Assembly: GCF_030384885.1 (NCBI RefSeq)
Contig: NZ_CP128613.1
Source: Escherichia coli
GTDB lineage: Bacteria > Pseudomonadota > Gammaproteobacteria > Enterobacterales > Enterobacteriaceae
Reading direction: 5' to 3' (one strand)
DNA: 64,000 nt
Part shown: piece after piece, positions 8,047-41,597 of the stretch
How positions within the stretch are numbered: the first letter of the stretch is position 1
Layout: each line of letters begins with the position of its first letter
The notes under the pieces: generated by a model
What the model was told of the DNA's origin: nothing
The model's input: only the letters and a program-made list of their open reading frames with translations
The model's database searches: none
Position numbers and translations under genes: made by a program

Positions 8047-9405
8047 ATGAGTAATGTTATTGCATCGCTTGAAAAGGTACTCCTCCCTTTTGCAGTTAAA
8101 ATAGGAAAGCAGCCACACGTTAATGCAATCAAAAATGGCTTTATTCGCTTAATGCCGTTAACCCTTGCGGGGGCCATGTTTGTATTAATTAACAACGTTT
8201 TTCTAAGCTTTGGGGAGGGGTCGTTTTTTTATTCCTTAGGTATTCGCCTGGATGCCTCAACCATTGAAACACTTAATGGTCTGAAAGGTATTGGCGGCAA
8301 CGTATATAACGGAACATTAGGGATAATGTCTTTAATGGCACCGTTCTTTATTGGCATGGCGCTGGCAGAAGAGCGTAAAGTCGATGCGCTGGCGGCTGGG
8401 TTGTTATCCGTTGCAGCATTTATGACCGTCACCCCATATAGTGTCGGTGAGGCCTATGCGGTTGGCGCAAACTGGTTAGGTGGGGCGAATATCATCTCCG
8501 GGATTATTATTGGCCTGGTGGTGGCAGAAATGTTTACCTTTATTGTCCGCCGCAATTGGGTCATTAAATTGCCCGACAGCGTACCTGCTTCAGTATCGCG
8601 TTCCTTCTCGGCATTAATTCCCGGCTTTATTATTCTTTCCGTGATGGGGATTATTGCCTGGGCGTTGAATACCTGGGGCACCAACTTCCATCAGATCATT
8701 ATGGATACCATCTCAACCCCACTGGCATCGTTGGGTAGCGTGGTGGGCTGGGCCTATGTGATCTTTGTTCCACTGCTCTGGTTCTTCGGTATTCATGGTG
8801 CGCTGGCGCTGACCGCACTGGACAACGGCATTATGACGCCGTGGGCGCTGGAAAATATCGCGACCTATCAGCAATATGGTTCCGTCGAAGCGGCGCTGGC
8901 AGCCGGTAAGACCTTCCATATCTGGGCCAAGCCGATGCTGGACTCCTTTATTTTCCTTGGGGGCAGTGGTGCGACTTTAGGCCTGATCCTGGCTATCTTT
9001 ATCGCCTCTCGCCGTGCTGATTATCGTCAGGTGGCAAAACTGGCGCTGCCGTCCGGCATCTTCCAGATTAACGAACCGATTCTGTTTGGTTTGCCAATTA
9101 TCATGAACCCGGTGATGTTTATCCCGTTTGTACTGGTGCAACCGATTCTGGCGGCAATCACTCTGGCAGCGTACTACATGGGCATTATTCCTCCGGTGAC
9201 CAATATTGCACCGTGGACCATGCCAACCGGTCTGGGGGCCTTCTTTAACACCAACGGTAGCGTCGCCGCATTGCTGGTCGCACTCTTCAACCTTGGTATC
9301 GCAACGTTAATTTATCTGCCCTTTGTTGTGGTCGCTAACAAAGCACAAAACACGATTGATAAAGAAGAGAGCGAAGAAGATATCGCTAATGCCCTGAAAT
9401 TTTAA
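8047..9405 (+). CDS. chbC: PTS chitobiose/cellobiose-specific EIIC permease
   Basis: 452-aa polytopic membrane ORF directly after chbB. Confidence 0.93.
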
Positions 9406-37021: not shown

Positions 37022-37735
37022 ATGAAGATTTTTTTGGAGAATCTTTATCGTTCTGATTGCTATTTCCTGCCGATAAGAGATAACCAGCAAGACCTTGTCG
37101 GCGTTGAGTTAATTACCCATTTCTCCAGTGAAGATGGTACGGTTCGTATACCGACGAGTCGGGTTATAGCGCAACTTACCGAGGAGCAACATTGGCAATT
37201 ATTTTCTGAGCAGTTGGAATTGCTAAAATCATGCCAACACTTTTTTATTCAACATAAACTCTTTGCCTGGCTTAATTTAACCCCACAAGTGGCTACTTTA
37301 TTATTAGACAGGGATAATTACGCGGGCGAACTATTAAAATATCCGTTTATTGAACTGTTGATTAATGAGAATTACCCGCATCTCGATGAAGGAAAAGATA
37401 ATCGCGATCTTTTGTCCTTATCGCAAATGTATCCCCTTGTGTTAGGTAATTTGGGCGCAGGCAATAGCACAATGAAAGCGGTTTTTGATGGTCTTTTCAC
37501 CCGCGTCATGCTGGATAAAAGTTTTATTCAGCAACAAATCACGCATCGCTCCTTCGAACCGTTTATTCGTGCGCTCCAGGCGCAAATTTCCCCATGTTGC
37601 AATTGCATCATCGCGGGGGGCATTGATACGCCAGAAATAATGGCACAGATTACCCCCTTTGATTTCCATGCTCTCCAGGGATGCCTGTGGCCTGCCGTTC
37701 CTGTAAATCAGATAACGACGTTGGTTCAGCGATAA
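37022..37735 (+). CDS. ydiV: Anti-FlhD4C2 factor YdiV (degenerate EAL domain)
   Basis: 237-aa ORF; the canonical EAL motif position reads ELI (DLVGVELITHF); AT-rich gene. Confidence 0.85.
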   Translation: MKIFLENLYRSDCYFLPIRDNQQDLVGVELITHFSSEDGTVRIPTSRVIAQLTEEQHWQLFSEQLELLKSCQHFFIQHKLFAWLNLTPQVATLLLDRDNYAGELLKYPFIELLINENYPHLDEGKDNRDLLSLSQMYPLVLGNLGAGNSTMKAVFDGLFTRVMLDKSFIQQQITHRSFEPFIRALQAQISPCCNCIIAGGIDTPEIMAQITPFDFHALQGCLWPAVPVNQITTLVQR

Positions 37736-37758: not shown

Positions 37759-39234
<1,476 letters not shown>

Positions 39235-39237
39235 AGG

Positions 39238-39429
39238 CTACTTGGTCAATAGCAGCTTGCCAGCCTGAGTTTTACGGAGCAGATATTCTTGCCCGTCATG
39301 ATCGATAATCAGTTTGCCATCCGGACCTAACAGTGTCTGGCTGGTAATTCGCCGAATGGGCTGCGGGGAGGCGGTCTTGTGATTGGCATCCGTTTCAGGC
39401 GTGAGTTTTCTGCTATCCGTATAACGCAT
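39238..39429 (-). CDS. ydiE: HemP-like small protein YdiE
   Basis: Internal ATG of track ORF 39238..39456 gives the 63-aa [63 protein letters not shown]. Confidence 0.7.
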
Positions 39430-39451
39430 AAAAATTAATAATAATTGATAT

Positions 39452-39470
39452 AACAATGATTCTTATTATC
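39452..39470 (-). promoter_or_regulatory. Candidate Fur box upstream of ydiE
   Basis: Reverse complement GATAATAAGAATCATTGTT matches the 19-bp Fur consensus GATAATGATAATCATTATC at about 15 of 19 positions, 25-40 bp upstream of the ydiE start. Confidence 0.45.
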
Positions 39471-39560
39471 AATATTCTGGCGGGCCAGAGCAAGCAGTAA
39501 TTTGTTGAGAAGACAACAAGTTGCGCAGAAATGCCCATTCCGTCAGGAATGGGCACGCAT

Positions 39561-40607
39561 TCAGAAGCGGGTATCAACCGCAGAGGCGAGTTTTTCGACC
39601 AGGCGTTCGGTATCTTCCCAGCCCAGACACGGGTCGGTAATCGATTGACCGTAAGTGAGCGGCTGACCGCCGACGATTTTTTGCGTTCCTTCGCGCAGGA
39701 AACTTTCCGCCATAATTCCAGCAATCGCCGTAGAGCCATTGCGGATTTGCTGACAAATATCCTCACAAACTTCTAACTGGCGACGATGCTGCTTCTGGCA
39801 GTTGCCGTGGCTGAAATCCACCACCAGATGTTCAGGTAAATCAAACTCGTGCAACGTATCGCAGGCAGCGGCGATATCATCCGCATGGTAATTCGGCTTT
39901 TTGCCGCCACGCATAATAATGTGGCCATACGGATTGCCGCTGGTCTGATAGATGGTCATCTGACCATTTTTGTCTGGCGAGAGGAACATATGGCTGGCGC
40001 GGGCTGCGCGGATAGCATCCACGGCAATCCGCGTGTTGCCATCGGTACCATTTTTAAAACCTACCGGACAGGAGAGTGCCGAAGCCATTTCACGGTGGAT
40101 CTGACTTTCGGTAGTACGTGCGCCAATCGCGCCCCAACTGATTAAATCAGCAATAAACTGACCGGTCACCATATCGAGGAACTCAGTCGCGGTAGGGACG
40201 CCCAGCTCATTGACCTGTAAAAGTAATTTGCGCGCCAGCTCCAGACCGTGATTTACCCGATAGCTGCCGTTTAAATCCGGATCGGAGATTAGCCCTTTCC
40301 AGCCGACTACAGTTCGTGGTTTTTCAAAATAGGTGCGCATTACGATTTCCAGCCGTGACTGGTACTGGTTGCGCAGCGACTGCAGACGGGTGGCGTACTC
40401 CATTGCAGCGGTGAGATCGTGGATCGAGCAGGGGCCAATAATGACCAACAGTCGCTTATCTTCACCATTCAGTATTTTTTCAATTCTGCGGCGGGAGTCG
40501 GTGACATGGGTGGCGACGCCAGGCGTTACGGGATACCGTAGCGCGAGTTCGGCGGGCGTTACCAGGCTCTCAATACGCGCAGTACGGAGTTCGTCAGTTC
40601 TGTTCAT
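39561..40607 (-). CDS. aroH: DAHP synthase, tryptophan-sensitive isozyme
   Basis: 348-aa ORF MNRTDELRTARIESLVTPAELALRYPVTPGV... (class I DAHP synthase). Confidence 0.95.
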   Translation of the reverse strand: MNRTDELRTARIESLVTPAELALRYPVTPGVATHVTDSRRRIEKILNGEDKRLLVIIGPCSIHDLTAAMEYATRLQSLRNQYQSRLEIVMRTYFEKPRTVVGWKGLISDPDLNGSYRVNHGLELARKLLLQVNELGVPTATEFLDMVTGQFIADLISWGAIGARTTESQIHREMASALSCPVGFKNGTDGNTRIAVDAIRAARASHMFLSPDKNGQMTIYQTSGNPYGHIIMRGGKKPNYHADDIAAACDTLHEFDLPEHLVVDFSHGNCQKQHRRQLEVCEDICQQIRNGSTAIAGIMAESFLREGTQKIVGGQPLTYGQSITDPCLGWEDTERLVEKLASAVDTRF

Positions 40608-40752: not shown

Positions 40753-40770
40753 GCACTAGTTCTCTAGTAC
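40753..40770 (-). promoter_or_regulatory. TrpR operator of the aroH promoter
   Basis: Reverse complement GTACTAGAGAACTAGTGC contains the paired CTAG half-sites of the Trp repressor operator; lies about 150 bp upstream of aroH and overlaps the last codons of ppsR. Confidence 0.6.
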
Positions 40771-41597
40771 ATTCGACGACTAAGGCCCATGATATCAAGG
40801 ATCTTGGTGGCAATCTCTTCTACCGAATAATTGGTACTGTTAATCCATGGGATCTGATTCTTACGGTACAACGCTTCCACTTCCGCGACTTCCATCCTGC
40901 ACTGACGAAGCGAGGCATAGCGACTGTTCTCCCGACGTTCCTCGCGAATCGCCGCCAGACGTTCCGGGTCGATAGTCAGGCCGAACAATTTATGCTGAAG
41001 CGGTTTGAGCGACGCGGGTAGCACCAGATTATCCATATCGTCGGCAATAAAGGGGTAGTTTGCCGCGCGGATACCAAATTGCATTGCCAGATACAGACTG
41101 GTGGGGGTTTTACCACAGCGAGAAACGCCGAGCAGGATCACCTGAGCCTGGTCCAGATTGCGCAACGAAATGCCGTCGTCATGGGCAAGGGTGTAATCAA
41201 TCGCCGCAATGCGCGCATCGTATTTATTGAGATTATTAGGGTTAAGGCCATGGGTACGATGAGCAATCGGCGTTGGATCCAGTTTCATCTCTTGCTGTAG
41301 CGGGGCAACCAGCGCCTGAACGATATCCTGGCAAAAGCCTTCACTTTGCAAGATGATGGCGCGAATCTCCGGCAACACGATGGAGTAGAAGACCAGTGGG
41401 CGCACACCTGTCTGGTGATAAATTGCGTCAATCTGATCCTTCACTGCCCGTGCACGGCTCTCATTTTCGACAAACGGCAGCGTAATGCTGCTGATAGTGA
41501 CGGGAAATTGTGACATTACTGCGTGTCCTAATACCTCCGCAGTTATTGCCGTACCATCAGAAATATAAAAAACGTGGCGATCAACAGCATTATCCAT
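40764..41597 (-). CDS. ppsR: PEP synthetase regulatory protein (bifunctional kinase/pyrophosphorylase)
   Basis: 277-aa [34 protein letters not shown] recognised as YdiA/PpsR; divergent from ppsA. Confidence 0.9.

Follow-up and report, generated by a model that had tools for sequence, protein, structure and literature searches.

The 131-bp spacer between aroH and ydiE of Escherichia coli is best read as holding two separate elements, a hairpin directly behind aroH and, further downstream, an independent ydiE promoter operated by Fur, a model to which we assign a probability of about 0.9. Published ChIP-exo and expression data, mapped here onto the window (the whole stretch of 64,000 nucleotides that was analysed), show that Fur occupies this spacer in vivo and that ydiE is expressed in a Fur-dependent manner independently of aroH. 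Fur control of ydiE is already known and is nothing new as a regulatory finding: from the early 2000s onwards it was first predicted and later demonstrated, and the gene is a member of the core E. coli Fur regulon. The present analysis is of use in that it confirms a first, sequence-only reading of the spacer, fixes its coordinates and separates what is shown from what is inferred.

The aroH-ydiE locus and its orthologues

A segment of 421 bases around the spacer is 100% identical to the corresponding one of strain 2013C-4282 and occurs in 5422 of the 5426 complete E. coli genomes. The RefSeq annotation of 2013C-4282 agrees with the window, an E. coli chromosomal segment, coordinate by coordinate, and provided the following gene layout:

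40607..39561, minus strand: aroH, Trp-sensitive DAHP synthase, 348-aa open reading frame (RefSeq annotation of 2013C-4282)
39563..39561, minus strand: stop codon of aroH
39430..39560: aroH-ydiE spacer, 131 bp between two same-strand genes
39429..39238, minus strand: ydiE/hemP, 63 aa, HemP/HmuP family, ATG at 39429
37798..39234, plus strand: selO/ydiU (RefSeq annotation of 2013C-4282)
41597..40764, minus strand: ppsR (RefSeq annotation of 2013C-4282)

The K-12 spacer is also 131 bp long and differs from that of the window at three positions, all of them in the promoter spacer and none in the Fur box or the hairpin. ydiE and selO are transcribed towards each other and only 3 nt separate their stop codons (39234..39238), and therefore each transcript must terminate within the opposite gene; the pair has been catalogued as an "excludon" (PMC12288877), and ydiU/selO was up by log2 1.6 in a W3110 fur deletion (PMC10164565). 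Elsewhere in the window, the type III secretion effector gene espL1 (24055..25953) sits between yniD and thrS, and because of its presence the strain is taken to be an attaching-effacing or STEC-type E. coli.

Orthologues were collected by scanning a genome collection with a back-translated pattern of the YdiE C-terminus (YLLRKT..GKL.LTK), which returned 15 loci: 11 from Escherichia, Salmonella and Citrobacter, an E. coli fragment, a 417-bp "Streptomyces" contig and two hemP genes of distant origin (a Cellvibrionales MAG and Nitrosomonas marina). Klebsiella and Enterobacter were not represented among the 15 loci, and the resulting footprint thus covers three genera and two distant outgroups. 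The contig labelled "Streptomyces sp. NTH33" (L009, NZ_POTZ01001146.1, 417 bp, coverage 0.8) codes for a YdiE that does not differ from that of K-12 and is almost certainly an E. coli contamination of the Streptomyces assembly. The window and the 11 enterobacterial orthologues (L002, L004, L007, L008 and L010-L016) were aligned in 12 rows, in which conservation was distributed over the spacer as follows:

39556..39531: hairpin block, 81% mean identity, 14 of 26 columns invariant
39530..39502: tail and mid-spacer block, 29% mean identity, 1 of 64 columns invariant
39501..39488: AATTA...CTTGC block, 83% mean identity, 7 of 14 columns invariant
39476..39452: Fur operator block, 95% mean identity, 20 of 25 columns invariant
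39451..39430: leader block, 80% mean identity, 9 of 22 columns invariant

Spacer length varied from 131 to 167 bp among the 12 loci, with large indels in the tail and mid-spacer block. An A+T-rich inverted repeat, TTGTTG-TCTTCT-CAACAA (39502..39519, minus strand), is situated downstream of the aroH hairpin and ahead of the ydiE promoter; it was found in all four Escherichia rows, and the Salmonella and Citrobacter rows display unrelated sequence and indels at this place.

Fur operator and proposed promoter of ydiE

The sequence-only reading had proposed that an A+T-rich stretch directly upstream of the HemP-like ydiE matches the Fur consensus at about 15 of 19 positions. We compared the 19-bp consensus GATAATGATAATCATTATC by Hamming distance with the entire 64-kb window, and this proposal held in each of its parts: the box scored 15/19 at 39470..39452, its 3' end is 22 nt ahead of the ydiE ATG (39429) and the product of ydiE matches the HemP profile PF10636 with 55.9 bits. 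No other site in the 64 kb matched as well, the box being the sole one with four mismatches or fewer, and a search of the window at three mismatches or fewer found nothing. The elements of the operator and of the proposed promoter are:

39470..39452, minus strand: core Fur box GATAATAAGAATCATTGTT, 15/19 to GATAATGATAATCATTATC
39476..39458, minus strand: overlapping Fur-like 19-mer AATATTGATAATAAGAATC, 14/19, offset from the core box by exactly 6 bp
39461..39449, minus strand: mapped Fur ChIP-exo peak AATCATTGTTATA, on the AATCATT palindromic core of the box
39488..39493, minus strand: proposed -35 element TTGCTC, 3/6 to consensus, deduced from conservation
39465..39470, minus strand: proposed -10 element GATAAT, 5/6 to TATAAT, coinciding with the first hexamer of the Fur box, likewise deduced
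39430..39451, minus strand: A+T-rich leader ATATCAATTATTATTAATTTTT, in which ATTATTAAT is conserved, overlapping the downstream end of the Fur hexamer array

Read in register, the region resolves into the hexamers AATATT GATAAT AAGAAT C ATTGTT ATATCA ATTATT ATTAAT and runs downstream to about 39434; to judge by sequence, the 6-bp offset of the two boxes fits the hexamer-array model of Fur operators, in which three or more GATAAT-like hexamers make up an array. The ydiE operator does not differ in kind from the core E. coli Fur operators (fepA, entC, fhuA, cirA and others), with which it shares a 19-bp consensus that can be read as overlapping GATAAT hexamers, a predicted overlap with the promoter and derepression in the absence of fur.

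How often such a match arises by chance was estimated on shuffled sequences. Dinucleotide shuffles of the whole window contained on average 0.22 sites of four mismatches or fewer and at least one such site in 15% of cases, because of which position alone is weak evidence for a Fur box. Shuffles of the 131-bp spacer reached 15/19 in 0.18% of trials and those of its 16%-GC core in 0.8%. The remaining doubt is removed by conservation and by the published ChIP-exo data. A Fur box of 15-16/19 was found at the same offset in every enterobacterial locus that extends far enough upstream, with ATTGATAATAAGAATCATTGT as the conserved core of the operator, and both outgroup hemP genes carry 15/19 Fur boxes at a similar upstream distance. 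Other Fur-like matches in the window, of 14/19 at 8985, 24141, 54953 and 60033, were taken as chance occurrences; the one at 24141..24159 lies inside the A+T-rich espL1 and is probably of this nature.

Occupancy of the box in vivo could be located with the data of Gao et al. (PMC10164565), obtained from nine E. coli strains in which Fur ChIP-exo was paired with RNA-seq of fur deletion mutants. There, ydiE is counted, on binding and differential expression together, among the 36 core Fur-regulon genes of the nine strains, is present in both Fur iModulons and is assigned an intergenic ChIP-exo peak in MG1655 and W3110. The W3110 peak (P67, 1791295..1791307; supplementary file 3 of PMC10164565) lies 32-20 bp upstream of the hemP ATG, which is at 1791327 in NC_007779.1, and the K-12 and window sequences are identical across it. 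A second W3110 peak nearby (1793696..1793708), termed "intragenic" and assigned to ydiU/ydiV in the same work, maps to 37048..37060 of the window, within the first 40 nt of ydiV (anti-FlhDC factor; starts at 37022), where the best match to the Fur consensus is only 13/19 (GAGAATCTTTATCGTTCTG, 37037..37055).

The expression data point in the same direction and settle the claim that ydiE is Fur-regulated on its own account instead of travelling with aroH. When fur was deleted, ydiE rose from about 10-13 to 84-88 in MG1655 (log2 2.87) and from 0 to about 32 in W3110, while aroH went from about 275 to 205 (log2 -0.48) and from about 203 to 257, respectively (PMC10164565). Over eight of the nine strains the ydiE response was log2 +2.2 to +8.1, with aroH changing by about +/-0.5; the exception was BL21(DE3), in which ydiE went down without fur (log2 -1.1) as the sole core Fur-regulon gene with a reversed response (PMC10164565). 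In iron-replete wild-type cells ydiE stood at 0-13 FPKM and aroH at 200-280, so that ydiE RNA amounted to 0-5% of aroH RNA (PMC10164565). The dependence on Fur, the absence of which had been named as the result that would refute the proposal, extends to Salmonella, in which a fur deletion raised ydiE 7.4-fold and a Fur site was reported upstream (PMC3212961). Earlier Fur-site predictions and an Fe2+-Fur-dependent transcription of ydiE are cited in PMC3136457, and in human urinary-tract infection ydiE was up along with iron-uptake genes (PMC9239202).

These observations also decide between an independently controlled ydiE and two other explanations of the spacer. The idea of ydiE as a mere passenger, reached by read-through from the TrpR-controlled aroH promoter past a Fur-like sequence that is just non-functional A+T-rich DNA, has already been refuted by the published data on expression and ChIP-exo binding and is hardly credible. 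The two genes do lie on the same strand 131 bp apart, the hairpin between them lacks a good U-tract and a 15/19 match turns up somewhere in 64 kb in 15% of shuffles, but such a passenger would not be expected to stay at 0-5% of aroH RNA in the wild type or to respond to fur deletion differently from aroH, and neither the ChIP-exo peak on the box nor the invariance of the box over three genera, with flanks that diverge, agrees with a sequence devoid of function. It is also very improbable that the A+T-rich block serves chiefly to nucleate H-NS and responds to Fur only indirectly. The spacer core has a G+C content of 16% and the SELEX table flags H-NS (PMC3946193); however, the Fur ChIP-exo peak is confined to 13 bp on the AATCATT core, the conservation is base by base, which composition-driven H-NS binding does not need, and distant hemP promoters share the Fur motif.

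For the promoter operated by Fur two positions were considered. Shimada et al. (PMC3946193) obtained a genomic SELEX peak for RpoD holoenzyme in the aroH>ydiE spacer, indicating a promoter there, and also flagged H-NS. A promoter consensus scan of 39150..39750 returned no site, because the -35 hexamer agrees with the consensus at only three of six positions; this promoter and the aroH hairpin both miss the thresholds of the scan by a small margin. In the alignment, CTTGC was invariant in 12 of 12 loci, exactly 17 bp upstream of an equally invariant GATAAT, and on this pattern the ydiE promoter is most likely a weak sigma-70 promoter TTGCTC-17-GATAAT, from which transcription would start around 39458, giving about 28 nt of leader. 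The motif AATTA (39501..39497, minus strand), a few bases ahead of the proposed -35 element, is nearly invariant in the 12 orthologues and might act as an UP-like element or provide an additional contact for a protein. The hexamer pair given for the SELEX peak (PMC3946193) is a different one, TTGATA-16-TATCAA (39472..39467 and 39450..39445), which would place the Fur box over the -35 element and the spacer and leave a leader of about 6-9 nt. A near-leaderless mRNA of this type would account for the missing Shine-Dalgarno sequence, since no AGGA, GGAG or GAGG was found upstream of the ydiE start in any of the 12 Escherichia, Salmonella and Citrobacter orthologues. However, this pair was assigned from sequence in PMC3946193 and is not a mapped start, its TATCAA is unconserved beyond Escherichia, being replaced by GTTTGA in Salmonella and by AATTGA or AACCAA in Citrobacter, none of them -10-like, and it competes with a TTGCnn-17-GATAAT arrangement that is invariant in 12 of 12 loci; we thus consider it unlikely. 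It is to be noted that Fur repression holds with either assignment and that the Fur box would overlap the promoter in both cases, covering the -10 element and the start in TTGCTC-17-GATAAT or the -35 element and the spacer in TTGATA-16-TATCAA. The start codon of ydiE itself shifts between genera: Escherichia begins with ATG CGT TAT, and in Salmonella arizonae the first ATG has become ATA and a downstream ATG GAT is found.

The hairpin behind aroH

The aroH stop codon is followed, after 4 nt, by a G+C-rich stem-loop which was characterized by its fold energy and its conservation:

39531..39556, minus strand: stem-loop (G)UGCCCAUUCC-UGAC-GGAAUGGGCA(U), then AUUUCUGCG

On the plus strand, 39533..39554 reads gcccattcc-gtca-ggaatgggc, and the aroH-sense RNA after the stop codon is AUGC-GUGCCCAUUCC-UGAC-GGAAUGGGCAU-UUCUGCG. 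The core of the hairpin is a 9-bp stem (39554..39546 with 39541..39533) closed by a 4-nt loop, and the pairing can be extended to 10-11 pairs (39556..39531). The sequence and coordinates originally given for this hairpin were right, but its loop, described as 5 nt, has 4 (39533..39554). The hairpin alone has a folding energy of -18.7 kcal/mol; the 76-nt region around it reaches -26.3 kcal/mol, a fold that 200 shuffles never equalled (z = -5.1). All 12 orthologous hairpins fold, with energies of -14.5 to -22.1 kcal/mol, and each is followed by a pyrimidine-rich tail.

The stem is paired in 95% of cells across the 12 orthologues, as compared to 32-56% when the 3' partners are slid, and the loop varies freely among them (UGAC, GCAG, UGCG, CGCG, CCCC, UUCG and others). 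One pair passes through UA, UG and CG. Seven U·G cells turn into A·C mismatches on the opposite strand, because of which the hairpin is sensible only as aroH-sense RNA. Seven of the ten stem pairs never vary, GCCCAT/ATGGGC being invariant, and only two pairs change on both sides; a covariation test on the 12 orthologues did not beat column shuffles, because the stem is mostly invariant. The alignment supports the hairpin by conservation, short of statistical proof of an RNA structure. An Rfam scan of 39100..39800 (E <= 1) matched no RNA family, and neither aroH nor ydiE is present in the supplementary tables of Adams 2021, which were searched for mapped RNA ends.

The hairpin is probably the aroH transcription terminator or a 3'-end hairpin, and we infer the label "terminator" from its likeness to intrinsic (Rho-independent) E. 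coli terminators, with which it has in common a G+C-rich stem of 9-11 bp, a tetraloop, a location just 3' of the stop codon, a T-containing tail and the insulation of the next gene. Unlike these, its U-tract is short and interrupted: the tail AUUUCUGC has four U in eight positions, below the criterion of at least five in eight, and a terminator consensus scan of 39150..39750 called none because of this weak U-tract. Imperfect U-tracts are common among working E. coli terminators. The same features could be accommodated by a hairpin that stabilises the 3' end of aroH mRNA or forms a barrier to its processing, transcription being stopped by Rho or by a Fur or H-NS roadblock further downstream. 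Besides the weak tail, which is poorer still in U in some Citrobacter (CGUCUCUC), and the silence of the terminator scan at the hairpin, this explanation draws on a stem that is invariant instead of co-varying (7 of 10 pairs constant) and on the H-NS flag in the spacer. It is opposed by the association, in 12 of 12 orthologues, of a position 4 nt past the stop codon with 9-11 G+C-rich pairs, a tetraloop and a pyrimidine-rich tail, by the imperfect U-tracts of many working E. coli terminators and by an insulation that is kept without fur (in MG1655, ydiE at about 86 against aroH at 205, a comparison that promoter activity confounds). We judge a stabiliser rather unlikely, if still to be reckoned with, and retain termination as the probable role.

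With termination or protection of the aroH transcript at this point, the two-element model would operate as follows. The stable G+C-rich hairpin and the short pyrimidine-rich tail just past the aroH stop codon would end or protect the aroH transcript, keeping TrpR-controlled aroH transcription out of ydiE so that very little passes. Some 60 bp beyond the hairpin would lie the weak sigma-70 promoter of ydiE, probably TTGCTC-17-GATAAT, covered by a Fur hexamer array made up of the 15/19 core box, the overlapping 14/19 box and hexamer-like repeats that extend into the leader. Under iron sufficiency, Fe2+-Fur would sit over the -10 element and the start site and repress by exclusion of RNA polymerase; iron scarcity or deletion of fur would let the promoter fire, and the 63-aa YdiE would be made.

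YdiE as an orphan member of the HemP family

The ydiE product matches the Pfam family hemP (PF10636) with E = 3.7e-15 and 55.9 bits (cut-off 25), residues 27-63 of YdiE covering positions 1-37 of the 37 of the profile, and RefSeq annotates the gene as "hemin uptake protein HemP". Structures of YdiE have been solved (4YNX and 2LOJ), for which the depositors label the protein uncharacterized. A small PF10636 gene with a Fur box immediately ahead of it, expressed in an iron- and Fur-dependent manner, also heads the haem-uptake operons hemPRSTUV of Yersinia enterocolitica and chuPRSTUV of Chromobacterium violaceum, the Fur box of the latter being ATGATAATGGTTATCATT (PMC9131926). In the Cellvibrionales outgroup the order of elements is TTGACA, AATGATAATGGTTATCATT, hemP and a TonB-dependent receptor with a Plug domain. 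The hemP homologue of Nitrosomonas marina (L005, 8400..9340), preceded by the 15/19 Fur-like box TATAATAAGAATCATTCTC, is followed by a DUF2325 (PF10087) gene with no TonB-dependent receptor there, a non-canonical context for hemP.

In contrast to the genes of haem-uptake operons, ydiE of Escherichia, Salmonella and Citrobacter is an orphan, flanked by aroH and by selO, which runs towards it, and these RefSeq neighbours include neither a haem receptor nor a haem transporter. A position next to a TonB-dependent haem receptor or a haem-uptake operon is typical of the HemP/HmuP family, though not strictly defining, and the protein also occurs in enterobacteria that have no haem-uptake system nearby, or none whatsoever. 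Haem binding and positive control of receptor genes have been shown for the relatives HmuP and ChuP (PMC9131926). By analogy with rhizobial HmuP and C. violaceum ChuP, YdiE, an orphan of the core genome, might be a Fur-gated, haem-binding post-transcriptional activator of distant TonB-dependent receptor genes, with the horizontally acquired chu haem-uptake island of pathogenic strains, such as the present one with its espL1, as a candidate target and the A+T-rich leader, devoid of a Shine-Dalgarno sequence and overlapping the Fur operator, perhaps adding translational control; we offer this as a conjecture that is quite unlikely to hold.
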